The notes: generated by a model not told the origin, from the letters alone. 64,000 nt of DNA from an uncultured Gemmatimonadaceae bacterium (GCA_963781585.1 CAWAGQ010000004.1:1038622-1102621), one strand, 5' to 3'. Shown: positions 584 to 56,825, numbered from the stretch's first letter. Program-made: numbers and translations.

Positions 584-3500
584 TTACCCTCCGGCGGCAG
601 GCGAATGGTCGGACACAGCGTTCGTCCGCTGCGGAGGCGGCTCGTCGGTCGTCGGGACGATCTCGGGAAGTCCGGCCGCCTTGAGCATGGCGTTCAGGCG
701 ACCGAGGAACGCATCCACGTTCTTCTTGTATCGGGCGAGCTCCCGGTCGAGTTTCGGCGACAACGTGTTGAAGACCTCGTATGCCTGCGGGGGCGGCCGC
801 CGTTCGCCGTTACTCACGAAACCCATCAGTGCCGCAAGCTGGTTGTTCACGCGTACCGGGAAGTTGAGTGGATCCTCACCGCTCTTGTTCTTCGTCTGGT
901 AGATGGAGTCTTCGACCGCGCTCAGACTGTCGGCAAACGTCGTGGCGAGCGGCGCGAACGCCGCGACCGCCGCCATCTTCGGTGTGCGGTCATCGAGCTG
1001 CCGTTTGACGCTGCGAATTCGCTTGACGGCGTCGTTGGCCTCGGTGACCCGGTCGCGTAGCTGCAGCGCGAACCGCGTCTGCTCGGCGAGATCGGCGTCG
1101 GTGGCGCTCGCTCGCGGGTCGCGGCGAACCACGAGCGGTGCCGACAGCGGCGCGGCGTCGCCGACCGTGAGCCGCACGGTGTAGGTCCCCGGCGCGATCG
1201 CCGGGCCGGTGACTCCGCCCGCCCAGAAGATCATCCCCTGAAAGCTCGATGCGTCGGGGTAGCGCATGTTCCATTGATACTGATTGACGCCGAGCCGCGT
1301 GGTGACCCGCGCCGCACCGGCGCCACCAAATCGCCCGCCGCCTCCGCGCCCGCCGACGCCCTGCGGCACCGAATCCGTGGACGAGTATTTCCGGACGAGC
1401 TTGCCTGTCGGATCGAGGAATTCAACAGTCACCGGCTGTGAGTCCTGCGCGAGGCGATACATCACGGTGGCGCTCGCGTTGCCGGCGCGGGTGACCGGCG
1501 CCGGCTTGTAGAGGAAGTTCTTCCCCTGCGCAGCCGCCACTTCCGGTGCCTGACGCAGCTCGGTCAGGTTCTCCATCACCCAGAACGCCCGCCCGTGCGT
1601 GGCGATCACCATGTCGTCATCGCGCAGAGCGATGTCGTGTACCGGGACGGGCGGGAGGTTGCGCTGCAGGCTCTGCCAGTTGCGGCCGTCGTTGTACGAC
1701 ACCCACACGCCGCGTTCGGTGGCCGCGTACAGCAGACCTGGACGGACCAGGTCCTCGCGTACGGCGCGCGTGAACTCGGTCGGCGTGATCCCGTCAGTGA
1801 TTTTCGTCCAGGTTGCTCCGTAGTCATGCGTCTTGTACAGGTACGGCGCGAAGTCGTCCAACTGGTATCGATTCGCCGCCACGTACGCCGTAGCCGGGTC
1901 ATGCGGCGACGGGTCGATGATCGAGATGCGCGTCCACTCGGGCAGCCCTTTCGGTGTGACGTTCTTCCAGCTCTTGCCGCCGTCCCGGGTCAGGTAGATG
2001 AGCCCATCGTCCGAGCCTGTCCAGATCAACCCGGGCGTGACCGGTGACTCCTGGACGGCGAAGATCGTGGCGTAGTACTCGATAGACGTCTGATCCTTCG
2101 TGATGGGCCCACCCGACGGACCGAGCGTCGCGGGATCGTGCCGCGTGAGATCCGGCGAAATCACCGACCAGGTCTTCCCGTCGTTCGACGACTTGAAGAG
2201 CACGTTGGATCCCACGTACAGGACGTGCGGATCGCGCGGCGAGTTCATGATCGGGTACGTCCACTGGAAGCGGTACTTCGAATCCTTCGCGTCGTGGCCC
2301 ATCGGGTTGAGCGGCCAGGGGTCCAGCCGCTCGCTCAGCCCGGTCCGGCGATTCTGCATCTCGAGCACGCCGCTGTAGTTGCCGCCGTAGGTGATTTCGG
2401 GATCGAGCGGATCGGAGGCGATGTAGCCCGACTCGCCGCCCGCAACACCGTAGAAGTCGGAATACTGCGGTCCGGACGTCGTGCCACCGCGCCCGCCGCG
2501 GCCTCCCCCGCCACCACCCCGTCCGAATCCGCCGGCCGCTCGCACCGGGCCGCACGACGATCCGGCATCCTGCTTGGCCCCGCACACGTGATATGGAACG
2601 TGATTCGTGAGGTGTACGTGGTAGAATTGCCCGGTCGGCGCCGCCACCCGGATCGACGATGAGCCGCCGTCGGTGGTGATGATCGCCCCGTTGTCGTGCG
2701 CCACGGCGATCCGCTTCGGGTCGTCGGGCGCGATCCACACGTCATGATTGTCGCCGCCGCCGAACCCGCGCGCGAAGGTCTTGCCGCCATCCTTCGACCA
2801 CATCGGTCCCACGTTAGGCGCTGCAAGGACGTTCGTGTCCTTCGGGTCGGCGTAGATGTTCGAGTAGTACCAGGCCCGCTGGCGCAGATCGCGGTCGCCA
2901 TTCATGAAGGTCCAGGTCGCCCCGCCGTCGGCCGATCGGTAGATGCCGCCGTTCGGCTCATGCTCGATCAGCGCCCACACCAGGTTCGACTTCACCGGCG
3001 ACACCGCGACGCCGATGCGTCCCAGAACTCCCGACGGGAGCCCGGGGTTGTGCGTGATCTCCGTCCAGTGTTCCCCACCATCGGTGGTCTTGAAGATGCC
3101 GCTCCCGGCCCCGCCGCTGATGAGCAACCACGGTTTCCGCCCGGCCTGCCAGAACGCGGCGTACAGCACCTCCGGATTCGTCGGATCCATGACCAGATCG
3201 CTGATGCCGGTGGAGTCGTTCCGGAACAGCACCTTGCGCCAGGTTCTGCCACCGTCGGTGGTCTTGAAAACGCCGCGCTCCGGATTCGGTCCCCACACAT
3301 GTCCGAGCGCACCGACGTACACAATGTCCGGATTGGTGGGGTGGACACGGACCCTCGCAATCTGTTGCGTCTCTCGGAGACCCAGGTAGCTCCAGGTCTT
3401 TCCACCGTCCGTGGTCTTCCAGACACCCTCGCCATGGGACACGTTTCCGCGGATCGGCGATTCGCCGCCCCCCACGTACACGATGTCGGGATTGCTCTCG

Positions 3501-12949: not shown

Positions 12950-15127
12950 TCAAGGGCGGCCGCTCAAGCCTAACGAGGACGGTGCGCTGCGCACGATGTC
13001 GAGGCGCAGCTCGGTCCAGCCGTCCACCTGGAAGAAGCGCAGGCGCAGGGCGTGACGCCCCGCCGCGACCGGTACGGCATCGACCGCTGACTCGTGCAGG
13101 GTCCAGCGATCGATGCGGAGCGTGTCGTCCACCCAGACGCGGATGCCGTCGTCGCTGATTGTCCGCAGGATGTAGGAGCCTGGCGCCAGATCGACCGCAG
13201 TCGTCGCCTCGATCGCAAACCGCGCCTGAGGCAACTCACGAATCGTGGGCCGATACCAGAGATAGTCGAGTCGCGGGGCGCGCCGCTCCACCAGCGGCTC
13301 CGACCGCAGCAGGGCGTCGAAGCGATCCGACGCGGTGCGCGGATCGGTGCTGTCGGCCCAGGCAAAGAAGCGGATGTCCCAATCGACCCGCGGCTCGAAG
13401 TGCTCATACGAAAGGCGCACCGGCGTGCCCGGAGGACGTCGCGTCCCCGTGGACGACACCGTGGCCCTGCCCCGGTATTCGAGCGTAAGCGTCCAGTCAT
13501 CCGCAGCTTCAGGCTCGGGCGTCACCGCGATCGTATCTCCCACGCGGCCGGCAGCGCGCGACACCCGACTCACTCCGCGTCGTGCCACCACGCGCCAGTC
13601 ACCGGAAGGACCGAGCACGGCGAGCCGGAGCGGAACGGCACGCGTGCTGTCCACAGGCCACAGCCTGGGCGTCCTCCAGTCATACGGTCCCCATTCGTCC
13701 ACCACGATCGCGGCTCGGTTCCGGCGGGCGTCGGCCGAAGATGGCGGGCGACGCGGAACGCCGGGAAGCGTGGGAACCCGCCGCGCCCACTCGCTCGGGA
13801 CCGCCGGGGCCGGGCAATCGCCCGGCGTCGTGCCTGACGAGTCGTTCTGATCGACCGTCAGGCCGCTGGTATTGGCCGACTGAATCCGGATGCGATTGGC
13901 GACGAATCTGTTCTGCTCGATCCGGTAGTCGCGACTGCGCGTGTCGCGGTGCCGGGGGTAGCCCCAGTCGGAGGGCTCGATGCTGTCCGCCCACAACCGA
14001 ATGGCCGTGCTGTCGCCGAGAAAGAAGTTTCCGGCAATGACGTTGTCCTGCCCGTGTTCGATGGCCACGCCGGTGTGGTTCCCGTGAAAGCAGTTGGCGA
14101 TGACCTGCGATTCGAAGCTGTAACCGCCCCAGAGCCCGTAGTCGCTCCCCGCGGCTCGATTGGCGACGAAACTGTTCCGACTGAACGTGGCCTCCATGGC
14201 ATTGGCGGGCGCGAAGCTGAAATCGTTGCCGACGAACAGATTGTCGTTCGCCCCACCTTCTCCCGTGTCCATGGTGCTCTGTCCGGCCCAGAGAAAGAGC
14301 CCGTCGCCGCCGTGCGTGGCCGAGTTGAATGCGACGATGTTTCGGCTGCTCTGCTCGTACAACAGGATGTCCGCGGAGTCCTGGCCGCGCCGGTAGAAGC
14401 CGTCACTGTAGCCGCGCACGTTGAAGTCGACGCGATTGCGCACAACGGTATTATCGCTCGACCGGTAAAGGCCGATGCCGACGCCGGAGTTGAACGAGAA
14501 GTCGTTGTCCTGGACCCGGAGGTGGTTGCTGCGCACCAGGAGCAGGGCGTTCATCCCCTGGCGGACCACGGAGCGCCGCACCGCACCGCCCTGCACGTCC
14601 ACCAGGTACATCGCAGCGCCGTAGCGGAGCCACTCGTCCTTCTCGTTGTGATGATAGCTGAGCCAGTCGACGAGACTCTCATGCTCGACCAGGCTGAAGA
14701 GACGCGGCTTCCAGTTGTAGCTGGCATCGATGTTCGTGAGCACGAGGTCGCGTGTGCCGCGGGCCAGGATTGCAACCTTGTAGCCGCGGATGCGCGCGTT
14801 GATGATGCGTACGTTTCGGCCGCCATCAATGCGAATGGCAACGCCGGTGGCGAGGTCGGGGGCGGCGGCGGCCGCAGTACCCTGGAGCGTGGCGCCGTCG
14901 AAGTCCACGGTTACATCGTCGCCACGAACCACGATCAGCGAGGAATCGAGACCACCTGGTGCCGGCAGCCGATACACCTCGGGGACGACGCGCACCGACT
15001 GCGAGATGACCATCCCTGAGCGCAGCCGGATCCGTTCCTGGGCGCTTGATGCGCGCGCGAATCCGAGCGCGCACACCCCAACCGCGAGGGACACCCGGAC
15101 CGCGCCGCAGGGTAGCGGCAATCTCAC
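12950..15127 (-). CDS. Secreted right-handed beta-helix (NosD/pectin-lyase-like) protein with C-terminal PA14 domain
   Basis: Signal peptide; repeated N-x-F/V-x-x-N beta-helix turns; C-terminal SDDGIRVWVDD...H...LRFFQ PA14 motif. Confidence 0.8.
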   Translation of the reverse strand: MRLPLPCGAVRVSLAVGVCALGFARASSAQERIRLRSGMVISQSVRVVPEVYRLPAPGGLDSSLIVVRGDDVTVDFDGATLQGTAAAAAPDLATGVAIRIDGGRNVRIINARIRGYKVAILARGTRDLVLTNIDASYNWKPRLFSLVEHESLVDWLSYHHNEKDEWLRYGAAMYLVDVQGGAVRRSVVRQGMNALLLVRSNHLRVQDNDFSFNSGVGIGLYRSSDNTVVRNRVDFNVRGYSDGFYRRGQDSADILLYEQSSRNIVAFNSATHGGDGLFLWAGQSTMDTGEGGANDNLFVGNDFSFAPANAMEATFSRNSFVANRAAGSDYGLWGGYSFESQVIANCFHGNHTGVAIEHGQDNVIAGNFFLGDSTAIRLWADSIEPSDWGYPRHRDTRSRDYRIEQNRFVANRIRIQSANTSGLTVDQNDSSGTTPGDCPAPAVPSEWARRVPTLPGVPRRPPSSADARRNRAAIVVDEWGPYDWRTPRLWPVDSTRAVPLRLAVLGPSGDWRVVARRGVSRVSRAAGRVGDTIAVTPEPEAADDWTLTLEYRGRATVSSTGTRRPPGTPVRLSYEHFEPRVDWDIRFFAWADSTDPRTASDRFDALLRSEPLVERRAPRLDYLWYRPTIRELPQARFAIEATTAVDLAPGSYILRTISDDGIRVWVDDTLRIDRWTLHESAVDAVPVAAGRHALRLRFFQVDGWTELRLDIVRSAPSSLGLSGRP

Positions 15128-16246: not shown

Positions 16247-17395
16247 ATGATACCGCCGCCATATCGCCGGGCCCGGTCGCTACGCCTAACGCCTGTCGCG
16301 CTCTGTGCGCTGCTGACCGCGGTCGCGGTGTGTCCGGCAAGGGCGCAGGGCATCCCGGCTCGCCTCGACGACAGTACGTTCTGGCAGATGATCTCCGACC
16401 TGTCGGAGCCGGGCGGAACGTTCCGATCGGACAACTTCGTCTCGAATGAGGCGGCCTATCAGTACGTCATCCCGGGACTGCTGTCCCGCGTTCGGCCCGG
16501 CGGCGTGTACCTCGGTGTGGGTCCCGACCAGAATTTCACGTACATCGCGGCGTTTGTCCCGCGGATTGCGTTCATCGTCGACATCCGCCGTCAGAACCTG
16601 GTCCAGCACCTGATGTACAAGGCGCTGATCGAGGACTCGGCCGACCGCCCAGAGTTCGTATCCCGGCTCTTCTCTCGACCACGACCGGCCGGGCTCGATA
16701 CCAGCATGAGCGCGGAGGTCATCCTGGACGCGTATGCAGCGGTGGCACCCGACTCGGCGATGTTCCGCCGCACGCTGACCGCGATCCGGGAGCGCCTCCT
16801 GTCAGCACACGGGTTTGCGCTCACCCATGAGGACCTGAACTCGCTGGACTATGTCTTCGGGGCGTTCTACCGCGCGGGTCCCGACATCACGTACTCCTTC
16901 GGGTCTGCCGGGCGCAACTATGGTGGATACGGCATGCCCACCTATGCGCAGCTGATGCTGGAGACCGACGGGCACGGTGTCGACCGGAGCTACCTCGGCA
17001 GCGAGTCGACCTATCGCACACTCAAGGAACTGGAGGAGCAGAACCTGATCGTTCCGCTGGTGGGGGACTTCGCCGGGCCGCAGGCGCTGCGTGCGGTGGG
17101 AGAGTATCTGAAGGCGCATGGCGCCGCCGTGTCGATATTCTACACGTCCAACGTCGAGATGTATCTGTTCCAGGACCCGGACGCGTGGAAGCGATTCTAC
17201 AGCAGCGTGTCGACTCTGCCGATCGATTCCACCAGTACGTTCATCCGGTCGCTCTCGAATCGCGGCTGGGTGACGAGCCAGAATCCGAATTCGCGGTCGG
17301 CGCAGCTCGTGGCATCAATGGCCGATCTCGTGGACGCCTTTGCGCACGGGCGTATCGAATCCTACTACAGCATCATCCAGATCTCGCGCTATTGA
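16247..17395 (+). CDS. Secreted conserved hypothetical protein (possible Rossmann/methyltransferase-like fold)
   Basis: Signal peptide ending ARA; SDNFVSNE, GGVYLGVGPDQNFTYI, FYTSNVEMYL blocks; strong coding codon bias; start uncertain. Confidence 0.65.
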   Translation: MIPPPYRRARSLRLTPVALCALLTAVAVCPARAQGIPARLDDSTFWQMISDLSEPGGTFRSDNFVSNEAAYQYVIPGLLSRVRPGGVYLGVGPDQNFTYIAAFVPRIAFIVDIRRQNLVQHLMYKALIEDSADRPEFVSRLFSRPRPAGLDTSMSAEVILDAYAAVAPDSAMFRRTLTAIRERLLSAHGFALTHEDLNSLDYVFGAFYRAGPDITYSFGSAGRNYGGYGMPTYAQLMLETDGHGVDRSYLGSESTYRTLKELEEQNLIVPLVGDFAGPQALRAVGEYLKAHGAAVSIFYTSNVEMYLFQDPDAWKRFYSSVSTLPIDSTSTFIRSLSNRGWVTSQNPNSRSAQLVASMADLVDAFAHGRIESYYSIIQISRY

Positions 17396-18493: not shown

Positions 18494-20830
18494 TCAGGGT
18501 CGGTCGGAGCCTCCTCCCTGAGACGCGGCGGCGGACTGTCGTTCCCACACGAATCGGTGCAGGAAGTCCCCGATTTTCGTCCAGGTGCTCATCCACCGCG
18601 AGTGCATCATGGACTCGTGGAGATCGTCGGGGATCACCGTGAGCTCGAAGTGCACGTTGCGGGCGCGGAGTAACTGCACCAGCCCGACCATCTGGGCAAA
18701 GTCGACATTCCGGTCGTCGTCACCCTGGAGGAGGAAGACCGGCGACTTCCAGCCGTCGATGGCCGAGATGGTGGAAGAGCGATACGAGACAGCGCCGGTG
18801 TCGAGCGAGCTACCCCAGAGGTGCACACCGGCCAGGTCGGCACCTGCGACGAAGACGTCGGAGTTGCGGGCCAGCGCCTGCGAGGTGAGGACGCCACCAT
18901 ACGACAGTCCCCAGATGCCGACCCGGGTTGAGTCGACATCGGAACGGGACTGCAGGTATTTGCCTCCGGCGATCACGTCCTGGTACTCGGCGTTGCCGCG
19001 CCCGCCAGTATTCGGCGCCTGGCGGAAGGACCGGCCGTAGCCGATGCCGCTGCGGTAGTTCACCGACATCACGACGTAGCCCTGGCTCGCCAGCCACTGG
19101 TTGAACGCGTATGCCCAGTGATAGAACTGCATGTAGTGGTAGCCGGGCATCATCTGTCGTACCGGTCCGCCGTGCACGAAGATCATCGCTGGACGACGCT
19201 CACCCGGTTTCAGATCGCTGGGCAGAAAGAGCTGGTTGTGAATCTCCAGGCCGTCGGCTGCTTTGGTGATCACGATCTGCGGCGTGACGTGGGCTGCCTT
19301 GGCGAAATCCTTCGGCAAGATGGGGAAGATCAACTTCGCGGTGCCGCCGGCGGCCGGAACCAGTCCGACAGACGCGGGCTGGGTGGCGCCGAAATACAGC
19401 ACGGCCACCTGCCGGCCCGAGGCGAGGGGGGTCGGCGAGGTTTCGATGCCATCGCCCTGCGAGACCTGCGTCGGCGTCCCACCGGACGTGGGGACCGCCC
19501 AGATGTGGCGGCGCTCGATGTCGTTGGCGTTGGTGCAGTAGTAGAGCGTCTTCCCATCGTGGGACAGGGCCGCCGAGGTGACGTCCTCGATGAGTCCGTC
19601 GGTGGTGGTCAGCTCGATCGGCCGATCGGTGGACCCGTCGACCGCGATGGCCCAGTAGCGGTCGAACTCGTCGTCGGACGGCGAGAGCGGGAAGACCAGA
19701 TGGCCGGCGCCCCACATCATGCGCGCGATGAAGTTGAAAACCGGCTCGTTAGGTTCGTTGTGCCAGATCTCCTTCGCCTCCCCGGTGGCGAGATCGGCCA
19801 CCATCACTTCCAGCGTGTATCCGCCGCGGAACGTCGCCCGGCACAGTCCCGGGAAGCGCTTGTCGACGCTGGTGGCGGTATCGGGCTCGCCGCCAAAGCG
19901 GCCGCCACCACGCCCACCAAGCCGACCACGCCCGACGCCAGCGCAGATGCCGGCTGACAACCCGGCATTCCCTCCGCGTCCACCTCCGCCACGCCCGGCG
20001 GCGGGTCCGTTGGGATTGCCGAGACTTCCGGTGCCTTCCTGCGCCTGCTGGCCAAAAGGCAGCCCCGGACGACGCGTGAACGCGATATGCTTGCCGTCCG
20101 GCGACCAGACCGGTCCGGCGTCGAAGTCGACACTCGGTGCCACATAGTCGGCCGTCCGCGACTTCACGTCATACATCCCGATGAGCGAGTGATTGCCGCG
20201 GTCACTGACGAATGCGATCCGCGAACCATCCGGGGACCAGCGGGGGCTGCTCTGTCGTCCCCATTCATTAATGAAGGGCTTGAGCCCGAGGTCCATCGAA
20301 TCCGGCTGGGCCACGTGGGCGACCCGGGCGCGGAAGATCTGCCCGTCCTTCACATAGAGGACGGTTCTCCCATCGGGAGACAGTTCCGGCCCGGCTCCGT
20401 CCGCCAGCTTCCAGGCGGGTCCGCCCGCCGTGCGGACGGCCCAGATGGCGCGCTCGCCACCGTCCGGGTCGTGCGACGGATTGGCCACCCAGCCCTGGCG
20501 ATTGGGCGCGGATCCGCGAACGAAGACGACGACCGATCCGTCATCGGAGATGCCGACGTCGCCCAGATCCACGCCGTCGTCCTTGAGGAATCGCGTCAGG
20601 CGGACGGGGGTGAAGGCCGGCGCCGCCGCGGTGTACACGTTCCGCATGCCGCGGTCGTACGCCATCCACGCCACGCGGTCGGCGTTCCGGGCGGCGGTGA
20701 TGGAGAGTGGCGACGCCTCGTTGAAGAACTGCTCAATCGTCGGCCTGGACTGACCTGCGAGCGGCGGCGCGAAGAGGAAGAGCGCCACGGAAGTGAATCG
20801 GACAACGCGGGCGGTGGTGGGGCGAAACAT
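18494..20830 (-). CDS. Secreted S9-family (prolyl oligopeptidase/DPP-like) peptidase with TolB-like propeller
   Basis: WSPDG repeats; HGGP, GIWGLSYGG nucleophile motif, DDRNV, H near C-terminus; GAGG RBS before ATG 20830. Confidence 0.9.
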   Translation of the reverse strand: MFRPTTARVVRFTSVALFLFAPPLAGQSRPTIEQFFNEASPLSITAARNADRVAWMAYDRGMRNVYTAAAPAFTPVRLTRFLKDDGVDLGDVGISDDGSVVVFVRGSAPNRQGWVANPSHDPDGGERAIWAVRTAGGPAWKLADGAGPELSPDGRTVLYVKDGQIFRARVAHVAQPDSMDLGLKPFINEWGRQSSPRWSPDGSRIAFVSDRGNHSLIGMYDVKSRTADYVAPSVDFDAGPVWSPDGKHIAFTRRPGLPFGQQAQEGTGSLGNPNGPAAGRGGGGRGGNAGLSAGICAGVGRGRLGGRGGGRFGGEPDTATSVDKRFPGLCRATFRGGYTLEVMVADLATGEAKEIWHNEPNEPVFNFIARMMWGAGHLVFPLSPSDDEFDRYWAIAVDGSTDRPIELTTTDGLIEDVTSAALSHDGKTLYYCTNANDIERRHIWAVPTSGGTPTQVSQGDGIETSPTPLASGRQVAVLYFGATQPASVGLVPAAGGTAKLIFPILPKDFAKAAHVTPQIVITKAADGLEIHNQLFLPSDLKPGERRPAMIFVHGGPVRQMMPGYHYMQFYHWAYAFNQWLASQGYVVMSVNYRSGIGYGRSFRQAPNTGGRGNAEYQDVIAGGKYLQSRSDVDSTRVGIWGLSYGGVLTSQALARNSDVFVAGADLAGVHLWGSSLDTGAVSYRSSTISAIDGWKSPVFLLQGDDDRNVDFAQMVGLVQLLRARNVHFELTVIPDDLHESMMHSRWMSTWTKIGDFLHRFVWERQSAAASQGGGSDRP

Positions 20831-29400: not shown

Positions 29401-29404
29401 GTGA

Positions 29405-35379: not shown

Positions 35380-35392
35380 TGCCGGTCGCCCC

Positions 35393-39588: not shown

Positions 39589-40770
39589 TCAGACCGGCGC
39601 GAGGGACCGCTGGCGCACGCGCCCCGCCCGGCTCGCCGCTTCGCGCAGCCGCTCTGGTGAGGTGATGAATGAGACGCGGAAGAAGCCTTCACCGCCGGAC
39701 CCGAACCCCGAGCCGGGAAGCACGATCACGCCTTCCTCCTCGAGCAGGCGCTCGGCGAACAGCGCGCTCGGCACGCCGTCGGGAACCGGGATCCAGAGGT
39801 ACATCGTGGCCCGGGGCGCGTCGCAGGAGAAGCCCGCGGCGCGAAACGCAGCGACCGCCGCGTCCCGTCGCTCGCGGAAGACGCGCAGATTCCCGGGCAC
39901 GAATTCCGCCCAACTCTCGAGCGCGGCGACCGCGGCGTACTGGATCCCCATGTACGCGCCGGTGTCCACGAACGACTTCACACGGGCGAGGGCGCCACAG
40001 AGCTCCGGATTGCCGATCGCCCATCCGCAGCGCCAGCCGGTCATGTTGTAGGTCTTGCTGAGCGAGTGAAACTCGATCGCCACCTCGCGTGCTCCGTCGA
40101 TCTCGAAGATGCTCGGCGGCAGATAGCCGTCGTAGGCCATCTCCGAGTAGGCGTTGTCGTACGCAAGGATGATGTCGCGCTCGCGACAGCGCCGGACGAC
40201 GTCAGCGAGATACTCACGCGGTGCGACCGCGGCGGTCGGATTGTTGGGATAGTTCAGGTAGAGGACGCGCGTGCGGCGGAGGACCTCGTCGGGAACGGCA
40301 TCGAGGTCGACGAGGAAGTTCGTGGCCGGGCGCAGGGGAAAGGAATACACCTCGGCGTCGGACAGGAGGGTGCCGCCGGCGTAGGCCATATAGCCCGGCT
40401 CGGGCACGACGGCCGCGTCGCCGCGCTGCAGATACGCGAACGCGAGGTGGGCGATTCCTTCCTTGGATCCGATCAGCGGCACCACTTCGCGGAGAGGATC
40501 GAAGGTGAGGCCGAAGCGGGTCTTCGTCCAGGAGACGATTGCTTCCCGGAATGGCACGTAGCCCAGCCCGAAGCCATAGCGGCCTAACGATGGCAGCTCC
40601 GCGGCGCGCGCGAGGGCCTCGATGGCGGCCGGCGGCGGCGCCAGGTCGGCGTCCCCGGCGCCCAGGTCGATGACATCCACGCCCTTCGCAAGCAGTTCGC
40701 GTTTGCGCTGGGGAATGTGCGCCAGCGGATACGGCGGGAGCGCGGTGAAACGGCTGGTCTGAGGCGGCAT
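39589..40770 (-). CDS. Class I/II PLP aminotransferase (LL-diaminopimelate aminotransferase/AlaC-like)
   Basis: IDLGAGD, GSKEG, LNYPNNPT, DNAYSE, SLSKTYNMTGWR PLP-lysine motif. Confidence 0.88.
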   Translation of the reverse strand: MPPQTSRFTALPPYPLAHIPQRKRELLAKGVDVIDLGAGDADLAPPPAAIEALARAAELPSLGRYGFGLGYVPFREAIVSWTKTRFGLTFDPLREVVPLIGSKEGIAHLAFAYLQRGDAAVVPEPGYMAYAGGTLLSDAEVYSFPLRPATNFLVDLDAVPDEVLRRTRVLYLNYPNNPTAAVAPREYLADVVRRCRERDIILAYDNAYSEMAYDGYLPPSIFEIDGAREVAIEFHSLSKTYNMTGWRCGWAIGNPELCGALARVKSFVDTGAYMGIQYAAVAALESWAEFVPGNLRVFRERRDAAVAAFRAAGFSCDAPRATMYLWIPVPDGVPSALFAERLLEEEGVIVLPGSGFGSGGEGFFRVSFITSPERLREAASRAGRVRQRSLAPV

Positions 40771-42117: not shown

Positions 42118-42178
42118 GCAACGCCCGATCCCGCGGCCTAACGAGATCTGGTACGCGATGCGCTCGCGCCCGGCAGGA

Positions 42179-42714: not shown

Positions 42715-42777
42715 GTCAATCGGGATGCGGAGGTCGTGGTCGACGATGGCCAGTCCTGCAACCGGCGCAGTTAGGCA

Positions 42778-46577: not shown

Positions 46578-48296
46578 ATGATCCGCCTTCCCGCGCGCCG
46601 AACGGCCGGCGCACTCCTCGTCGCCTGTGCCGGTGCACACGCGCTGCCCGCCCAGGACTCGTCCCAGGTCGTGCGTTCCCGACGGGGTCTGGTCGTGTCC
46701 GTTTCGGCGCCGGCGTCCGACGCCGGCGCGTCGGTTCTTGCCCGGGGCGGGAACGCGGTCGACGCGGCGGTGGCCACGGCGTTCGCGCTGGCGGTGACGC
46801 ATCCCAGCGCCGGCAACATCGGCGGCGGCGGATTCATGGTCATTCGTCAGGCAAACGGCACGGCGACCACCATCGACTACCGTGAGCGCGCGCCGCTCAA
46901 AGCCGACTCGCTGCTGTTCGCACCGGGTGGCACGCTCATCCGCGCGTTAGGCGATACCGGCTATCTGTCGGCCGGCGTCCCGGGCACCGTGCGCGGGCTG
47001 GAGCTTGCCCACCGCAAGTACGGCAAGCTGCCGTGGGCGCAGGTCGTGCAGCCGGCGGTGCAGCTTGCCAGCCGAGGGTGGCCGCTCTCGTCCGCGCTCG
47101 CGCGCGCCATCAATTCCACCGTCCACGGACGCAGTGCACGCTACCCCTCGACCGTCGAAGCCTACGGGAAGCCCGGTGGCGGCGACTGGCAGGCAGGGGA
47201 CACGATCCGCCTGCCGGCGCTGGCGCACACGCTGTCCGAAATCGCGACCAAAGGGGCGGCGGTCTTCTACACCGGCTGGATCGCCGATTCGATCGACGCC
47301 CAGATGCGGGCGCATCGCGGAGTCATGACGCGGGGAGACCTCGCGGTCTACGCCGCCGTTGAGCGTCCTCCCGTGCGGGGATCGTTTCTGGGCTACGACA
47401 TCCTGGCGATGGGCCCCCCCACGTCGGGCGGCCAGGTAGTCATCGAAACCCTGAACCTGCTCGAGAAGCTGGGCGTGGGATCGATGGAGCCGCAGTCGGC
47501 GTCGTACCTCTTCGCGCTCATCGAGGCGACGCGCCGGGCGTACTACGACCGCGCCCGGTTCCTCGGGGACGCCGATTTCGTACAGGTTCCGCTCGGCCGG
47601 CTGCTTTCCAAGGCCTACGCCGACTCGCTGGCCGCGACGATCGACCTGTCACACGCCACCAGGAGCGTCGACCTGGGAAGCGAGATCGTCACGGCGCACG
47701 AGTCGAATGAGACCACGCACTTTTCGGTGGTCGATGCCCAGGGCATGGCGGTGTCGAACACGTTCACGCTGCAGAACGGATGGGGTAACGGCATCGTGGT
47801 GCAAGGGGCGGGCTTCCTGCTGAACGATGAGATGGGCGACTTCAACCGCCTGCCCGGCGTGACCAATGCGCGTGGCGACATCGGCACGCCGGCCAACATC
47901 ATCGAACCGGGGAAGCGCATGCTGAGCTCAATGAGTCCGGTAATCCTGTCGCGCAACGGCAAACTCTTTCTGGTCACCGGTTCGCCCGGAGGACGCACCA
48001 TTCCAAACACGGTGCTCGACGTGATCCTGGGTGTCACGGCCTTTCACATGAATGTGCGGGAGGCGGTGGACGCCCCGCGGCTGCACCATCAGTGGCTCCC
48101 GGACACGACCACCATCGAGCCCGGCGGCGCCAGCGATGACGTGCTCGCCGCGCTGCGCGCGAGGGGCGAGCACGTCGGAATAGCACGCGGCCGGAATCAG
48201 GGTGACGCGCATTCGATCATGTACGATCCGGCAACCGGCACGGCGTCTGGAGCCAACGACAAGCGGAGTCCGGACTCGAAGGCCAGCAAGCCCTGA
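46578..48296 (+). CDS. ggt: Gamma-glutamyltransferase
   Basis: GGNAVDAAVA, GNIGGGGF, DYRE, GVPGTV, ETTHFSV nucleophile Thr, LNDEMGDF, RMLSSMSP, GSPGG. Confidence 0.95.
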   Translation: MIRLPARRTAGALLVACAGAHALPAQDSSQVVRSRRGLVVSVSAPASDAGASVLARGGNAVDAAVATAFALAVTHPSAGNIGGGGFMVIRQANGTATTIDYRERAPLKADSLLFAPGGTLIRALGDTGYLSAGVPGTVRGLELAHRKYGKLPWAQVVQPAVQLASRGWPLSSALARAINSTVHGRSARYPSTVEAYGKPGGGDWQAGDTIRLPALAHTLSEIATKGAAVFYTGWIADSIDAQMRAHRGVMTRGDLAVYAAVERPPVRGSFLGYDILAMGPPTSGGQVVIETLNLLEKLGVGSMEPQSASYLFALIEATRRAYYDRARFLGDADFVQVPLGRLLSKAYADSLAATIDLSHATRSVDLGSEIVTAHESNETTHFSVVDAQGMAVSNTFTLQNGWGNGIVVQGAGFLLNDEMGDFNRLPGVTNARGDIGTPANIIEPGKRMLSSMSPVILSRNGKLFLVTGSPGGRTIPNTVLDVILGVTAFHMNVREAVDAPRLHHQWLPDTTTIEPGGASDDVLAALRARGEHVGIARGRNQGDAHSIMYDPATGTASGANDKRSPDSKASKP

Positions 48297-50154: not shown

Positions 50155-51335
50155 GGAAAGAACCGCCGCCGGTCGCGCGCCATGCGCTTGAGGAGGGGAC
50201 TGGGCCGGTAGCGATCCTCCTCGTACTCCCGCTGCAATCGCACCAGCTCGTTCAGGACCTGATCGAATCCCAGTGCGTCGCCCCAGGCAAGGAGACCGCG
50301 CGGATAGTGCACGCCCTTCGTCATCGCCAGCTCGATGTCGCCGGGGGTGGCCACCTGCAGCGACACGGCATCCACCGCTTCGTTGATGAGCATCGCCACC
50401 ACGCGGGTCACAATGCGCTCGCCTAACGATCGATCTTCAGTGGCCCGGCGGGGAGCTGCCTCGGGCGCGTATTCATAGAAGCCGCGCCCGGTCTTGCGGC
50501 CCAGGAAGCCGGCCTCTACCAGGCGGCGCTGAGTCAGCGACGGCCGATACCGCGGGTCGTAGTGCATCGCGGTCCACACCGATTCCGTGACGGCGTAGTT
50601 CACGTCGAGGCCGATGAAGTCCATCAGCAGAAAGGGGCCCATCCGGAATCCGCCGATCTCCCGCAGCGCCCAGTCGATCGTTGGCGGATCGGCGATCCCC
50701 TCCTCGAGCATCCGCAGGGATTCTCCATAGAAGGGACGCGCGATTCGATTGACGATGAAGCCCGGCGTATCGGTGGCCACCACCGCCACCTTCCGCCATC
50801 CGGTGGCGAGGTCGCGAGTGGCCGCCGCGGTCTCCGGGGCCGTGCGCAGGCCGGGCACGATCTCCACCAGCGGCATCACCGGCGCCGGATTGAAGAAGTG
50901 CATGCCGACCACGCGCTCCGGCCTGGCGCAAGCGGACGCGATCGACGTGACGGAGAGCGACGACGTGTTCGTCGCCAGCACGCACTCATCATCGACCACG
51001 CGCTCCAGCGCCCGGAACGAAGCCTGTTTCACGTCGAGTTGCTCCACCACCGCTTCCACGACTATCCGGCAGTGCCGGAACGGGTCGAACCCGGTCGCCG
51101 GCGGAATGAGCGTGAGGCGACGGGACGCCGCTTCGGCCGCGTCGCTCGTGAGGCGGCCCCGGTCGACCTCGCGCCGGAGCGCGGCCTCGATCGCCTCGTG
51201 CGCCCGGTCCACCGCCCGCGGCTGCGCATCGCTGAGAAGCACGCGGTGGCCGTAGGTGAGGGCTACCTGGGCGATCCCGGCGCCCATCGCGCCGGCGCCG
51301 ACCACGCCAACAACGGCATCGGAGGTCAGTCCCAT
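50151..51335 (-). CDS. paaH: 3-hydroxyacyl-CoA dehydrogenase
   Basis: [41 protein letters not shown]. Confidence 0.92.
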
Positions 51336-51357
51336 GCGCACCGAGGTTGCCGACCAC

Positions 51358-52229: not shown

Positions 52230-54551
52230 TCAGCGCGGCGACCCGGGCAGCACTTCCACCCGGGAAATCGCGTCGCCCTCGAGCACCGCATCGATGACGT
52301 CCATCCCCGATTCCACGGCGCCCACGACGGTGTAGTCATGGTCCAGCCGGTAGTTGTCGACGAGGTTGACGAACAGCTGGGCGTCGCCGGTATCACGGCC
52401 TCGGGTGGAGATGCCGACGGTTCCACGCCGGTGCGAGGCCAGCCCCAGCTCGTCGCGCAGAAACGGCCCGTCGCCGATGTACTCGTTCGCGCCGGGGCTC
52501 CCGCCCTGAATCACGAAATCGGGCACCACCCGGTGCCAGGTGAGTCCGTTGTAGTAGCCGGCGCGCGCGAGGGACACGACGCGCGCCACGGTTGCCGGCG
52601 CATTCTCCGGGTCGAGCCGCAGCATCACCGTGCCCGGGCCGGCGACGGTCTGTATCGTTAGGCGCAGACGGACCGCGGGGCCGGTGGCGAGGGCGCCGAG
52701 CGGGACCGGCGACGACGGCGCGGGGACCACCGATACCACATTCTGGCGGGTCCAGGCGGACAGGAGGTGCATGGCGCGCGCGCCGACCGCGGGATCGACG
52801 TCCCGCAGATAGGGCACCAGGCGGGGCGCCAGGCTGCTGTCCCCCATCTCCGATATCCGCGCGAGCAGCTCCATCCGCGGATCGCGCGAGGTCTCGCGCC
52901 GCGCCGCCGTGAGCCGATCGAGCGCGGCAGCCAGCGACGGCACCAGGGCGGTACGGGGGGGGGCGCCCCGAAGCGCCCTCGCGGCGGCCAGCACGACCTG
53001 TGGGTCGCGGCTCTCGAGCGCCGCGACATAGATGCCGTCGGCCGCGTGCCCCACCACGGTCGAGAGGCCGTCGAGCGCCACCTCCCGCACGTTGGCCACG
53101 GTGTCCTGCGCGAGGGCGGTCAACACCGGGGCGTCGTGCGCCGCGGCCGCCGCCCGCGCGGCGTACAGGCGCAGGTGCCACTCTTCGGCGCGCGCCTCCC
53201 GCGCGATGACCGGACGAGCGCCCGCCGAGTCCACCCTGGCCAGCGCGACCAGCGCGTGCGCACGCTGGTGCCAGGACGCCGCGCCCCCAGCCACACCGGC
53301 GCCGCCCGGCGCCGCGTTCGCCACTGCGCGCAGGCGATCCGCCGCCGGCCCCGGCGGCAGGCATCGGCCGCCTAACGCGTCGATCGCCGCCAGACGGACC
53401 TGAGCGCTGGGGTCCGTGGTCGCCTGCACCAGCGGCCCGCAGTCCTGCGTCGCAAAGAGCTGCCGGTACATCCGCACCCACTCCACTCGCACCAGAAACG
53501 AGGAATCCTCGCGGGCGGCCCGGAGCACCTCGCGCTGCAGAAACACGTCGGACGCGTTCGGCAGATACAGGACGGCCAGTCGCCGCACCTGCGGATCGGG
53601 ATCGCGCGCCGCGCCGCGAACGAGCAGCTCGTCCCGGTGTCCGGCGGCCGTGAGGGCAAGCCACGCCAGGCGCCGGATCGCCGCCGCCTCCTCGACGGTC
53701 GCTTGGGCGTTGGCGGCCGAATCGCGCCCATACACCGCCGCTGTGCGCAGCACGGCGATCGACGGGCTGGTGAGCGCGCCGAGCGTCCGGCGCGCCCGGG
53801 CCAGCGCGTAGAGACCGTGCGCGGCGCCACGCAGAACGGGCGCCGGCGCGCGGGCGCTCGCCGGCGGCTCGCTGGACGCGCTCGCCCGTCCCACGATGGT
53901 CGCGATGGCCTCTTCGGCGTCGCGCGCCTGCGCCGGCACCGTGTACGGGAGGCGGCCGATGGACCGTGCGAGGACTCCCATCACAAGTGGCGAGCGCTCC
54001 CGCCGAATCGGCGCGATCAGCAGCGCGAAGACCGAATCGACCGCTGCGCGGGCGCCGGCAATCCGCTGGCTGTCGCCCGGCGGCGGCGTTGCGCTCACGC
54101 TCTGCGCGAGGGCATTGGCGGCTTCGGCGCGCACGCTCCCGGCGGAATCGGTGAGCAGGGGAGCGATCTGGTCGATCAGGTCGGAGCGTTCCAGCCGGCC
54201 AAGACCACGCACGGCGATGCGACGGATCGCGGAATCGGCGCTCGCGACGCCGTCGAGCAGCGGCGTCACGCCCGCGCCCCCGTGTCCCCTTTCGTCTTCC
54301 GCGCGGAGCATCGCGTCCAGCAGCACCATGCGTGACCGCGCGGCGGACGATGCGGCTCGTTGGGCAAGCACGGTCGGCGGCAGGATCAGCGCGGCCCCCA
54401 CCAGCGCGATCGCCGGGGCGAGCCACACCGCGAGGGACCGGCCCGAGCGGCGCGGGCCCGCGATCGCCGGCAACCAGTCGGTGCGGCGCGCGCGCGACAG
54501 AGCGGGCGAGCAGCGCGCACCGCGCGAGAACGAAGCGACGTGGGACCGCAT
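52230..54551 (-). CDS. HEAT-repeat protein with C-terminal cyclophilin PPIase domain (exported)
   Basis: Repeated VR-x-x-A HEAT-like units; GYYNGLTWHRVVPDFVIQGG, GRDTGDAQLFVN; start uncertain. Confidence 0.85.
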   Translation of the reverse strand: MRSHVASFSRGARCSPALSRARRTDWLPAIAGPRRSGRSLAVWLAPAIALVGAALILPPTVLAQRAASSAARSRMVLLDAMLRAEDERGHGGAGVTPLLDGVASADSAIRRIAVRGLGRLERSDLIDQIAPLLTDSAGSVRAEAANALAQSVSATPPPGDSQRIAGARAAVDSVFALLIAPIRRERSPLVMGVLARSIGRLPYTVPAQARDAEEAIATIVGRASASSEPPASARAPAPVLRGAAHGLYALARARRTLGALTSPSIAVLRTAAVYGRDSAANAQATVEEAAAIRRLAWLALTAAGHRDELLVRGAARDPDPQVRRLAVLYLPNASDVFLQREVLRAAREDSSFLVRVEWVRMYRQLFATQDCGPLVQATTDPSAQVRLAAIDALGGRCLPPGPAADRLRAVANAAPGGAGVAGGAASWHQRAHALVALARVDSAGARPVIAREARAEEWHLRLYAARAAAAAHDAPVLTALAQDTVANVREVALDGLSTVVGHAADGIYVAALESRDPQVVLAAARALRGAPPRTALVPSLAAALDRLTAARRETSRDPRMELLARISEMGDSSLAPRLVPYLRDVDPAVGARAMHLLSAWTRQNVVSVVPAPSSPVPLGALATGPAVRLRLTIQTVAGPGTVMLRLDPENAPATVARVVSLARAGYYNGLTWHRVVPDFVIQGGSPGANEYIGDGPFLRDELGLASHRRGTVGISTRGRDTGDAQLFVNLVDNYRLDHDYTVVGAVESGMDVIDAVLEGDAISRVEVLPGSPR

Positions 54552-54695: not shown

Positions 54696-56825
54696 ATGTC
54701 AGTCCAGTCCGCGCGAAGAAGCAGAAGTGCGAAGAGCGCCGGCGTGCAACCGCAGTTCGATTGGAGGCGGATCGCCTACCACGCACTCGCCTCGCGCGCG
54801 CTGGACGACATCGAGGAGGCGACGAACCGCGACCGCGCCACCGTGCCGAAGGAGCAGCTGGTGCTGTACCAGTTCTCGGCACGCGGCCATGAAGTGGCGC
54901 AGTGCATTCTGGCGGCGCTGATCGATCGGCGCGAAGACGCGGTGAGCGCCTACTACCGCTCGAGGCCGCTGCTGCTGACCCTCGGGCTCCCGATCGAGGA
55001 GGGCTTCGCCGGCCCGTTAGGCAGGACCGGTGCATTCAGCGACGGACGCGACATCGGCGTGGTCTGCAATCTGCCCTCGCGCCACGGCCCGAAGGTGCTG
55101 CCGATGGGGGGGGACGTCGGTTCGCAGTACACACCCGCGGCCGGCTGGGCGCAGGCCATCACCTACCATCGCGACGTGCTCGAGGACGAGCGGTACCGTG
55201 GCGCGATGGCGGTGGTGCTCGGCGGCGAAGGGTCGGTCGCGACCAATGGCTTCTGGTCCGCCCTCACCATCGCTACCACACTCCGGCTCCCGCTGCTCTT
55301 CTACATCGAAGACAACGGGTTGGGGATTTCGGTGCCTGGAACGATGCAGACGCCGGGCGGCAACATCGCGGCCAATCTCGCGTCGTTCGGCAACCTGCTG
55401 GTGCGCGACGGCGACGGCACCGATCCCGATCAGACCGCACGGCTGTTCCACGAGGTGGTGGGCCACGTGCGCGGCGGTGCGGGACCGGCGCTGGTGCATC
55501 TGACGGTACCGCGCCTGTCGAGTCACTCCGGGCCCGACAACCAGAAGGGATATCGGACCGAGGAGGAGATCGTCGCCGACTGGAAGCGCGATCCGCTCCC
55601 GCGGCTACGGGGATATCTCGTTCCGGACCACATTCCCGCCGAAGCCTGGACCGATCTCGAGGCCGAGGTGGCGCGGGACGTGCGGACGGGACTCGATGCC
55701 GCCCGGGCGCGTCCGTCGCCCGATCCGGATCAGGTGAAGCGCTTCGTGTACGCCGAGCCCGAGCGGCCTGGCGACCGGCGCGCGTTAGGCGGCCTCGCCG
55801 ACGAGGAACGGCACCGGCTCGGCGGCACTCCGGAACCCCGCGACGACGGCAAGTTGATCCGGTTCACCGAGGCCGTGCGCCGGACGCTGCGGCGCGAGCT
55901 GCTGGTCAATCCAAAACTCCTCGTCTTCGGCGAAGACGTGGGCGTGAAGGGCGGCGTGCACCTTGTCACCGAAGGACTGCAAAGGGAGTTCGGGGACCGC
56001 CGGGTCTTCGACACCAGCCTTTCCGAGGAGGGGATCATCGGGCGCGCCGTAGGCATGGCGATCGCGGGCCTGATGCCGGTCGCAGAAATCCAGTTCCGGA
56101 AGTACGCCGACCCGGCCACCGAACAGCTCAACAACTGCGGGACCATGCGCTGGCGTACCGGCAACCGGTTCTGCGCGCCGATCGTGGTGCGGATGCCGGG
56201 CGGCTTCGGGAAGGACGTGGGCGACCCGTGGCATTCGGTGAGCGGCGAAGTCCTCTGGGCGCATGCCATCGGGTGGCAGGTGGTGATGCCGTCCAACGCC
56301 GCCGACGCGGTGGGACTCCTGCGCGCCGCCATGCGCTCGCCCAACCCGACGATCTTCTTCGAGCACCGGTCGCTGTTGATGACCAGCGATGGCAGCGCCC
56401 ACTACCCCGGCGACGACTACCTGATTCCGTTGGGCAGCGCGCATGTCGTCCGGACCGGCGACGACGCCACCGTGGTGACCTGGGGAGCGATGGTGCATCG
56501 GTGTCTCGACGCCTGCGCGCGCGTGAAGGCATCGGTGGACCTGATCGATCTGCGATCAATCGCGCCGTGGGACAAGGCGCTGGTGCTGGAGTCGGTGCGC
56601 CGGACCGGACGGTGCCTGGTGGTGCACGAGGACACGATGACCGCGGGCTTCGGCGCTGAGGTCGCCGCGGTGCTCGCCCGGGAAGCGTTCTGGGAGCTCG
56701 ACGCACCGGTGGACCGGGTCTGCGTAGAGGATGTTCCCCTGCCCTATCATCCCAACCTCCTCAACGCCGTGCTTCCCGATGCGGCGACGATCGCGGCGCG
56801 ACTCGAGGCGCTGCTCGGGATCTGA
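54696..56825 (+). CDS. Fused 2-oxoacid dehydrogenase E1 alpha+beta (branched-chain/pyruvate-type)
   Basis: GHE, YYR, GEG...EDN TPP motif, HS..D; beta part FGEDV..GGV, DTSLSEEGI, EIQF, IDLRSI.PWD, VVHED. Confidence 0.9.
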   Translation: MSVQSARRSRSAKSAGVQPQFDWRRIAYHALASRALDDIEEATNRDRATVPKEQLVLYQFSARGHEVAQCILAALIDRREDAVSAYYRSRPLLLTLGLPIEEGFAGPLGRTGAFSDGRDIGVVCNLPSRHGPKVLPMGGDVGSQYTPAAGWAQAITYHRDVLEDERYRGAMAVVLGGEGSVATNGFWSALTIATTLRLPLLFYIEDNGLGISVPGTMQTPGGNIAANLASFGNLLVRDGDGTDPDQTARLFHEVVGHVRGGAGPALVHLTVPRLSSHSGPDNQKGYRTEEEIVADWKRDPLPRLRGYLVPDHIPAEAWTDLEAEVARDVRTGLDAARARPSPDPDQVKRFVYAEPERPGDRRALGGLADEERHRLGGTPEPRDDGKLIRFTEAVRRTLRRELLVNPKLLVFGEDVGVKGGVHLVTEGLQREFGDRRVFDTSLSEEGIIGRAVGMAIAGLMPVAEIQFRKYADPATEQLNNCGTMRWRTGNRFCAPIVVRMPGGFGKDVGDPWHSVSGEVLWAHAIGWQVVMPSNAADAVGLLRAAMRSPNPTIFFEHRSLLMTSDGSAHYPGDDYLIPLGSAHVVRTGDDATVVTWGAMVHRCLDACARVKASVDLIDLRSIAPWDKALVLESVRRTGRCLVVHEDTMTAGFGAEVAAVLAREAFWELDAPVDRVCVEDVPLPYHPNLLNAVLPDAATIAARLEALLGI

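Follow-up and report, generated by a model that had tools for sequence, protein, structure and literature searches.

An octamer written by synonymous recoding into genomes of one Gemmatimonadota order, and its possible role as a self tag in DNA exchange

The uptake signal sequences (USS) of Pasteurellaceae and the DNA uptake sequences (DUS) of Neisseriaceae are fixed short words, present in thousands of copies, distributed equally between the strands and free of replichore bias, which lie within genes in tolerated reading frames, are accompanied by a graded halo of mismatched forms, are evenly spaced and are sparse in foreign DNA (accessible sections of PMC1939737; further properties are given in parts of PMC2817400, PMC3630211 and PMC7371117). 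The octamer of cyanobacteria termed highly iterated palindrome 1 (HIP1; GCGATCGC) is likewise hyper-abundant, quasi-periodic and conserved and is suspected of serving DNA uptake; it is palindromic, is a target of the methylases DmtA and DmtC, and correlates with genes of type IV secretion systems (accessible sections of PMC13756078). A third point of comparison is the attC site of integrons, with its core GTTRRRY and inverse core RYYYAAC (accessible sections of PMC3053210). Here, the asymmetric octamer CGTTAGGC, which shares the listed properties of the USS and DUS and those by which HIP1 resembles them, and the letters of which (GTTAGGC/GCCTAAC) match the attC core and inverse core, was examined in an uncultured Gemmatimonadaceae bacterium. 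The word was noticed in a stretch of 64,000 nucleotides, hereafter the window (GCA_963781585.1, CAWAGQ010000004.1:1038622-1102621), and was followed through the assembly that contains it (G000; 5.72 Mb in 17 contigs, 67% G+C) and through related genomes. It differs from the USS and DUS in belonging to another phylum, one with no reported competence, and in consisting of eight bases without a conserved flank.

A sequence-only reading of the window had listed 19 copies of GTTAGG/CCTAAC, eight on the plus and 11 on the minus strand. An exact motif search recovered every one of these positions and strands, and no further copies (Table 1). The same counts were obtained for the adjoining bases, with a 5' C at 17 of the 19 sites (position 25880 having T instead, and 42770 A) and 16 C and three T at the 3' side; 14 of the sites are the full octamer CGTTAGGC. 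Dinucleotide-preserving shuffles of the window yielded 6.1 ± 2.6 copies of the hexamer, and none of 100 shuffles reached 19. The tetramer TTAG/CTAA, expected 62.6 times, occurs only 23 times, and just four of these lie outside GTTAGG, in keeping with the earlier estimate of about four. The caveat that base composition alone predicts a similar number of copies is right for the hexamer (approximately 22 by our own arithmetic) but fails for the octamer and for any codon-aware null model. Codon settings were assigned with a crude self-trained gene caller, which called 4,748 genes in the genome (85.7% coding). The 12 TTA-GGY and three CCT-AAC settings read previously were found again, whereas one CTA-ACG and three intergenic copies replace the two and two that had been proposed, a difference of one site that arises because a single gene boundary decides it. 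The genes concerned are those of ordinary metabolism, namely the Rnf complex, pyruvate:ferredoxin oxidoreductase-like enzymes, beta-oxidation and phenylacetate catabolism.

Across both strands of G000, TTAG occurs 3,056 times, with 1,916 of these occurrences inside GTTAGG and 1,442 inside CGTTAGGC. Under an order-3 Markov model only 50.6 copies of the octamer would be expected (28.5-fold excess, z 196), and no other octamer in the genome is so over-represented by this measure. Outside its eight bases only weak preferences and codon periodicity are apparent in the flanks. It is surrounded by a graded halo of one-mismatch forms, comprising CGTTAGGT (5.4-fold), CGTTATGC (4.7-fold), CGTCAGGC and TGTTAGGC (3.5-fold each), while the remaining one-mismatch forms are mostly near or under expectation. 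The enriched forms recur in G001 and G009, and a 196-kb sample of G009 presents the octamer, the weak flanks and the halo as in G000. A 200-kb sample of the word-poor genome G003 contained no hyper-represented octamer and no replacement 'dialect' word, the top z value being 10.

Within genes, CGTTAGGC arises through synonymous codon changes wherever the amino acid sequence leaves room for it. The genic copies of G000 fall into four frames, with 761 as xCG-TTA-GGC, 30 as xxC-GTT-AGG-C, 267 as xxG-CCT-AAC-G and 66 as xGC-CTA-ACG; one more, in an antisense GCC-TAA stop frame, is probably a gene-call error. Sense copies outnumber antisense copies by 791 to 334 (2.4:1). A further 213 copies are intergenic (14.8% of the total, intergenic DNA making up 14.3% of the genome) and 104 span gene boundaries, and at gene ends 71 cases of CGT-TAG-GC and 45 of GCC-TAA-CG were counted. 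The recoding is evident from codon choice, since TTA accounts for 37.5% of Leu codons in the context xCG-Leu-GGC versus 0.84% overall, CCT for 52% of Pro codons in G|Pro-AAC|G versus 6% overall, and CTA for 11% of Leu codons in xGC-Leu-ACG versus 0.8% overall. Indeed, 761 of the 1,375 TTA codons in the genome sit in xCG-TTA-GGC. The 1,125 genic copies fell to 48.2 ± 5.0 when synonymous codons were shuffled within genes and to 27.3 ± 6.1 when codon order was shuffled (10 shuffles each). Comparison of rpoB among 30 genomes revealed that the alignment columns bearing the word in any genome encode conserved residues, mostly Leu-Gly and otherwise Leu-Thr or Pro-Asn/Asp, at which word-poor genomes use CTC or CTG followed by GGN and word-rich genomes use TTA-GGC, with separate rich lineages recoding the same columns; none of the 16 poor genomes has a copy in rpoB, versus seven copies in G233, five in G009 and two in G000. 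Similarly, at 26982..26989 in the Rnf operon, G000 has ACG-TTA-GGC where the congener G001 has ACC-CTG-GGC, that is, three synonymous differences in eight bases against an overall identity of 91%. The proposal, made from the window alone, that the motif reflects a signal at the level of DNA rather than a protein constraint is thus borne out by the codon contexts, the synonymous shuffle, the rpoB recoding at conserved residues and the proportional intergenic share, and neither of the two comparisons suggested as means of refuting it, namely a codon-preserving shuffle and the evenness of TTA codons over contexts, speaks against it.

The word is also held against mutation. In 290 kb of alignment between G000 and G001 (88.7% identity), 55 of 74 copies in G000 and 55 of 67 copies in G001 are identical in the other genome, compared with 43% of random 8-base windows. 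The commonest replacements were CGTTAGGT (nine cases) and CGTCAGGC (five cases). The latter is the top octamer of G000 by a maximal-order Markov test (1,519 copies versus 1,197), and its codon contexts are skewed in the same manner: AGG makes up 36.6% of Arg codons in C|GTC-Arg|C versus 4.3% overall, with corresponding values of 32% versus 6% for CCT, 22% versus 5% for TCA and 28% versus 10% for CGT, while the codon shares of the control words CGTGAGGC and CGTAAGGC remained near baseline. CGTCAGGC appears where the protein forbids the T form, for example where T would give a stop codon, and its excess is 3.4-fold in G001 but only 1.5-fold in G009 and 1.35-fold in the word-poor G003. In this genus, and only here, CGTCAGGC is itself driven through rare codons, and it can be read as the second-best form for the reader of the genus.

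The copies are divided evenly between the strands of G000 (724 forward, 718 reverse), and neighbouring pairs show no polarity (++ 379, -- 373, -+ 338, +- 335). In 50-kb segments of positive GC skew 345 copies are on the plus and 289 on the minus strand (54% plus), as opposed to 226 and 244 (48% plus) where the skew is negative. Gene orientation follows GC skew more strongly than does that of the word, and the small local correlation of the latter is explained by the 2.4:1 sense bias in genes. Position inside genes is near uniform and the number of copies per gene near Poisson. Solitary copies are the rule, with only 20 neighbour gaps shorter than 200 bp. When the same numbers of copies were placed randomly at protein-permitted positions (4,743, 848 and 2,528 opportunities in the three main frames) and in intergenic DNA, gaps under 200 bp made up 5.1 ± 0.6% of the simulated total versus 1.4% observed, those under 500 bp 12.2 ± 0.8% versus 4.8%, and those under 1 kb 23.0 ± 1.0% versus 14.8%; none of the 300 simulations gave shares as low as those observed. 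The avoidance extends to all orientations, the pairs within 500 bp numbering 42 rather than the simulated 91 for the same orientation, 13 rather than 45 for +- and 14 rather than 46 for -+, and only 10 pairs of opposite orientation lie within 200 bp. Hence copies avoid one another within approximately 1-2 kb, and roughly one copy per 1-4 kb suffices. Since avoidance holds in the same and in opposite orientation, whatever reads the word makes no distinction between the orientations, and a single copy per 1-2 kb is enough for it. Density rises with G+C content (rho 0.46) and with G+C content at third codon positions (GC3; rho 0.42). Of the twelve 20-kb bins in which the word occurs once or not at all, most have a low GC3, nine of them between 0.70 and 0.80 as compared with a mean of 0.83, and the twelve probably represent acquired DNA.

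The distribution of CGTTAGGC among genomes was assessed against the reversed word as control. Seven of 31 relatives carry it at 2-23 times the control, namely G000 (1,442 copies), G001 (915), G005 (605), G009 (6,360), G014 (460), G015 (516) and G030 (345), and most of the others have 6-65 copies, far under the control. A sample of 251 genomes from the phylum added G114, G124, G158, G186 and G233 (3,896 copies) from the same family, and, from a second family, the genus g69, in which G166, G204 and G211 are rich and G165 and G145 lower; G008, G078, G196 and G117 were counted only as word-poor rows. None of 82 genomes from nine families outside the order exceeded the control, and the rich genomes thus represent scattered lineages of one order only. 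A quick RpoB tree was built from 30 of 37 panel genomes, G001, G002, G014 and G186 being left out as partial matches and G005, G011 and G145 for want of a match at the threshold. With 'rich' set at 300 copies or more, this label requires at least five changes on the tree. A well-supported clade of six genera that includes G000 is rich throughout, save for G016, the sister of G000, which has 173 copies versus 226 for the control; rich G233 and G124 stand among the poor G061 and G004, and poor genomes surround both the g69 genus and G030. RpoB of G000 is 89% identical to that of the closest Gemmatimonadaceae record and 81-82% identical to those of Gemmatimonas or Gemmatimonadetes records, and the word does not occur in the 10.5 kb around rpoB of that closest record. 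The type strain Gemmatirosa kalamazoonensis KBS708, which is in culture, ranks among the rich genomes, with 404 + 374 copies on plasmid 1 (NZ_CP007129.1, 1,106,233 bp) versus 20 for the control, and 15 copies in the first 30 kb of plasmid 2. The genome paper of this strain (PMC3974934) is silent on the word. A literature search that did not extend to subscription journals and supplements found no paper in print describing it in either orientation, the heptamer appearing once, in a primer.

Taken together, these observations indicate that CGTTAGGC is maintained by a sequence-specific, orientation-blind reader of duplex DNA. Judged by its anatomy, the word would best be explained as a DNA-uptake-like self tag, or as the mark for a related self-recognition step in DNA exchange, an interpretation to which we assign a probability of roughly 0.4. 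According to this proposal the reader would be the DNA-uptake and transformation apparatus, by which fragments bearing the word would be preferentially bound and taken up before being recombined, with CGTTAGGC itself as the best substrate and CGTTAGGT, TGTTAGGC, CGTTATGC and, in this genus, CGTCAGGC as weaker ones. Biased uptake would then spread the word through the resident genome, and newly acquired DNA would stay without it; a spread of this kind has been proposed for the USS of Pasteurellaceae and the DUS of Neisseriaceae (accessible sections of PMC1939737). Avoidance between copies irrespective of orientation is what a reader acting on whole fragments predicts. The word matches the USS and DUS in being a single over-represented word, in its strand equality, in its recoding within genes and its halo, and in its even, orientation-free spacing; a dedicated receptor of the ComP type was looked for and not found, and a receptor of another type may exist. 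Competence is shown to be feasible in G000 by the genes encoded, which include those for ComEC, DprA, a ComEA-like helix-hairpin-helix protein and PilQ, together with a pilMNOP-like cluster and eight pilin-like open reading frames (ORFs) selected by means of a simple pattern at the N terminus. In two cases, near-identical pilin genes form a pair divided between different contigs of G000 (C5:203291-203743 and C8:211014-211436, 89% identical; C5:319862-320245 and C8:324679-325062, 94%), which could reflect either true duplication or the 7% contamination reported for the assembly.

Several observations weigh against uptake as the explanation or set the word apart from the USS and DUS. ComEC and the secretin were present in all five genomes tested, word-rich and word-poor alike. 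Among the gene families profiled against the word, which were hand-picked, ComP_DUS (PF16732), representing the receptor of Neisseria, was over the cut-off in none of 15 rich genomes and in only one of the 37 panel genomes, a word-poor one. Three pilins of G000 were considered as receptors and rejected: a 127-aa pilin has orthologues irrespective of whether a genome is rich or poor, a 140-aa pilin occurs in G000 alone, and a 147-aa FimT/GspH-like pilin has a patchy distribution unrelated to the word. Natural transformation is not known to be reported for this phylum, and the papers listed for Gemmatimonadetes or Gemmatimonas (for the latter with competence, 10 of 1,844) contained nothing relevant. 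Intergenic enrichment is slight (213 copies plus 104 at boundaries, out of 1,442, versus 14.3% intergenic DNA), and the non-coding share is larger in Haemophilus influenzae and Neisseria; moreover, unlike the USS and DUS, the word forms no terminator-like inverted pairs. The same octamer, as opposed to the dialects of USS and DUS, recurs in five or more distinct parts of the RpoB tree, which demands either a transferable reader or many losses, and the sample of word-poor G003 offered no replacement. Finally, the same anatomy would result if the word were bound by a protein that acts inside the cell and is indifferent to orientation.

Such a protein is the explanation ranked next after uptake, although we consider it unlikely: CGTTAGGC would be the site of a chromosome-organising or self-marking protein, for example a nucleoid-associated one, which requires regular sites on native DNA. 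The regular and orientation-blind spacing, the similar density of the word in genes and spacers, its rarity in atypical low-GC3 DNA and its conservation between congeners would all suit a protein of this type, and evenly spaced USS were themselves read by Karlin as sites of replication, repair or compaction (quoted in the accessible sections of PMC1939737). However, a protein of this kind is not known and none came to light in this analysis, the density varies 8-fold among rich genomes (from about one copy per 0.8 kb to one per 8 kb), which would be odd for architecture, and close relatives such as G016 manage without the word. Uptake sequences and nucleoid-protein sites had both been named as examples by the sequence-only reading and both remain viable, with uptake fitting best.

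Chi of Escherichia coli (GCTGGTGG) is likewise an octamer that occurs approximately once per 4 kb and marks the cell's own DNA. A Chi-like role for CGTTAGGC, in which it would tame a helicase-nuclease or another end-acting nuclease, the cell's own DNA then being repaired while foreign DNA is degraded, would accord with the density of about one copy per 4 kb in G000, with its rarity in atypical DNA and with the even spacing, which would suit such a marker. Nevertheless, this role is improbable. Chi is co-oriented with replication and is read by RecBCD or AddAB, whereas CGTTAGGC has no replichore polarity and its copies avoid each other in opposite orientations too, which a strand-specific reader does not predict. 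The lack of strand polarity had already been used, from the 19 sites of the window, as an argument against Chi and against FtsK-orienting polar sequences, and the neighbour pairs, the GC-skew segments and the orientation-blind avoidance now uphold it. In addition, G000 encodes neither RecC nor an AddAB-like PDDEXK_1 pair; RecC was found in three of the 37 panel genomes (two rich, one poor), and AddAB-like pairs in seven of 18 poor genomes versus one of 15 rich genomes. The inverse trend for AddAB is not clean and may be phylogenetic, many genomes of the order having neither AddAB nor RecC.

Less probable still is that CGTTAGGC is read by integron-type tyrosine recombinases, with the solitary copies representing half-sites or secondary sites related to attC. 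This possibility arises from word-poor relatives, where copies of the octamer are concentrated on a small number of contigs and recur at intervals of 500-650 bp, all in one strand; over 20 kb these regions lack any ORF of 400 aa, and they contain no tandem repeats. Each of the copies examined there closes an imperfect palindrome, GCCTAAC...GTTAGGC, of 89-104 nt with a fold energy of -16 to -35 kcal/mol. These clusters are integron cassette arrays in which the word is the R' core site, and they hold most of the octamer copies of such genomes. The integrase gene intI is common in the order, being over the cut-off in 18 of 31 relatives and in eight of 13 further genomes. Furthermore, G000 contains an IS91-like element, coding for a tyrosine recombinase, with GCCTAACG and CGTTAG at its ends, and this element and the attC arrays together show the same letters to serve tyrosine recombinases in this order. 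By contrast, the copies of G000 lie inside ordinary genes without any change of length and do not follow intI, which is over the cut-off in nine of 15 rich versus 15 of 18 poor panel genomes and is missing from the rich G124 (99% complete). The attC architecture (R''-L''-L'-R', 57-141 bp), present in the arrays of the relatives, is seen in G000 at only three hairpin loci, more than 99% of its copies being solitary. CGTCAGGC breaks the GTT triplet, which is among the only conserved positions of attC (accessible sections of PMC2727003); breaks of synteny between G000 and G001 coincide with the word in nine of 146 cases versus approximately 5.5 expected, which is no clear enrichment; and recombination sites in essential genes such as rpoB would be harmful. 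A variant of the uptake proposal, which we hold to be a long shot, is that a self tag for DNA exchange is deliberately identical to the attC core and that its reader could be a relative of the integron-type recombinases. If this were true, cells reading the word would favour the acquisition of cassettes, each of which in this order has CGTTAGGC in its attC, as well as of conspecific DNA, and natural transformation, integron cassette traffic and genome-wide tagging would be joined in one system.

The idea that CGTTAGGC is the HIP1-like target of a DNA methyltransferase, spread by Vsr-type biased repair or by methylation-dependent uptake, is largely refuted and highly improbable. HIP1 is of similar abundance, quasi-periodic and recognised by methylases (accessible sections of PMC13756078), and the alternation of T and C at position 4 in this genus resembles a deamination pair. 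However, CGTTAGGC is not palindromic, and no matching methylase or methylation was found. The sole C5 methylase and Vsr of G000 lie in a 20-kb bin that lacks the word, and the rich genomes G009 and G005 yielded no member of either family; PF01555 gave no match and PF02384 at most 29 bits in G000 and G233, in a search that did not include the Dam-type and Eco57I-type families. The single-molecule real-time (SMRT) methylome of the word-rich G. kalamazoonensis consists of three N6-methyladenine motifs, RGATCY, ATGCAC and CCAGN7TCA, none of which overlaps the word (PMC3974934); since SMRT is weak for 5-methylcytosine, that modification may still exist at CGTTAGGC. Conservation of the whole octamer and avoidance between neighbours would be unexpected of a mutational process, and the enrichment of CGTCAGGC is absent from G009. 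A link with type IV secretion, as described for HIP1, was also rejected, VirB4 being present in one of the 37 panel genomes, a word-poor one. Hence the methylase or repair process offered as an example by the sequence-only reading finds no support in the families searched or in the published methylome. Lastly, a by-product of protein, codon or translation constraint (hidden stops or TTA-based regulation), as might be entertained because two frames of the word contain the stops TAG and TAA and most genic copies (761) share one frame, is refuted by the occurrence of the exact octamer in four reading frames, in both orientations and in intergenic DNA, by its 23-41-fold excess over codon-preserving shuffles, and by the retention of the same amino acids in rpoB of relatives without the word.

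The coordinates of the individual features are collected in Table 1. In the window, a six-subunit Rnf-type complex adjoins a fused pyruvate:ferredoxin oxidoreductase-like protein of 1,712 aa and a second, split 2-oxoacid:ferredoxin oxidoreductase (25131-39310), and each of four consecutive Rnf genes has one copy of CGTTAGGC or of a one-mismatch form. The IS91-like element is 2.6 kb long and its three copies in G000 are 99.7-100% identical. It comprises a 303-aa tyrosine recombinase followed by an ORF named, by reading of its sequence, as of the zinc-ribbon/Y2 type; its ends form an inverted pair of the word, a third copy of the word lies between the two ORFs, and the recombinase is encoded also in G001, G014 and G021. 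No array was seen beside the intI gene of G000 (C7:185885-186829), and the hairpin on contig C13 is far off. At C7:477177-478451, the C5 DNA methylase and the Vsr domain share one open frame of 790 aa in a low-GC3 bin, which is probably a recently acquired restriction-modification island. A second over-represented word family of G000, AGGCCAAA/TTTGGCCT, derives from tandem heptamer arrays, (AGGYCAN)n, that are mostly intergenic; AGGCCAAA has 328 copies, 41 of them coding, and the arrays occur also in G001 and are absent from the samples of G009 and G003. These arrays are a phenomenon separate from CGTTAGGC.

Table 1. Locations of the word and of related features (plain coordinates are positions in the window; others give genome:contig:positions)
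Feature	Location	Strand	Setting
CGTTAGGC	2812..2819	+	antisense in BNR/sortilin-like gene 584-3802(-), G|CCT-AAC|G
CGTTAGGC	12968..12975	-	sense in gene 12950-15094(-), TCG-TTA-GGC
CGTTAGGC	16284..16291	-	intergenic (own gene calls)
CGTTAGGT, one-mismatch form	19747..19754	+	antisense in peptidase S9 gene 18494-20836(-), CCT-AAC
TGTTAGGC, one-mismatch form	25879..25886	-	sense in Rnf subunit gene 25699-26406(-), TTG-TTA-GGC
CGTTAGGC	26982..26989	-	sense in FMN-binding Rnf subunit gene 26403-27077(-), ACG-TTA-GGC
CGTTAGGT	27479..27486	-	sense in RnfD-like gene 27074-28072(-), TCG-TTA-GGT; full word in congener G001
CGTTAGGT	28807..28814	-	sense in RnfC-like gene 28069-29400(-), GCG-TTA-GGT; full word in congener G001
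CGTTAGGC	35247..35254	+	antisense in Fe-S protein gene 34540-35379(-), CCT-AAC
CGTTAGGC	36879..36886	-	sense in TPP-enzyme gene 36453-37403(-), GCG-TTA-GGC
CGTTAGGC	40582..40589	-	sense in aminotransferase gene 39589-40770(-), TCG-TTA-GGC
CGTTAGGC	42136..42143	-	intergenic
AGTTAGGC, one-mismatch form	42769..42776	+	intergenic (own gene calls)
CGTTAGGC	46945..46952	+	sense in gamma-glutamyltranspeptidase gene 46578-48296(+), GCG-TTA-GGC
CGTTAGGC	50421..50428	-	sense in 3-hydroxyacyl-CoA dehydrogenase gene 50151-51341(-), TCG-TTA-GGC
CGTTAGGC	52656..52663	+	antisense in HEAT/cyclophilin gene 52230-54473(-), CGC-CTA-ACG
CGTTAGGC	53370..53377	-	sense in HEAT/cyclophilin gene 52230-54473(-), GCG-TTA-GGC
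CGTTAGGC	55015..55022	+	sense in E1 dehydrogenase/transketolase-like gene 54744-56825(+), CCG-TTA-GGC
CGTTAGGC	55783..55790	+	sense in E1 dehydrogenase/transketolase-like gene 54744-56825(+), GCG-TTA-GGC
Chromosomal cassette array L001	G021:C95:1-20000	one strand	attC of 89-104 nt (GCCTAAC ... L''/L' ... xxxxC-GTTAGGC) each 500-650 bp
Chromosomal cassette array L002	G019:C3:1-9000	one strand	attC sites as in L001
attC-like hairpin	G000:C13:333700-335219		with a GTTAGGC lying 1.4 kb upstream, encloses a 433-aa ORF in the manner of a lone gene cassette
attC-like hairpin	G000:C7:160735-160848		
attC-like hairpin	G000:C7:362185-362320		
IS91-like copy	G000:C7:172170-174745		
IS91-like copy	G000:C7:182856-185367		left end truncated
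IS91-like copy	G000:C13:307514-310088	reverse	

Pasteurellaceae and Neisseriaceae are, to our knowledge, the only groups in which self recognition of DNA by means of a sequence tag has been established experimentally; for the HIP1 of cyanobacteria it is suspected. The tag described here is equally strong and belongs to Gemmatimonadota, a phylum that is abundant in soil and has received little study. The existence of a cultured, word-rich type strain with a finished genome and a methylome opens the question of the reader to direct work at the bench, and the on/off pattern among close relatives provides a contrast by which the reader might be located through phylogenetic profiling. For those who search for integrons the word is a caution, since rich genomes contain thousands of solitary, perfect core sites outside integrons. 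In these genomes the word distinguishes native from acquired DNA, and it may perhaps also serve to expose mis-binned contigs in metagenome assemblies.

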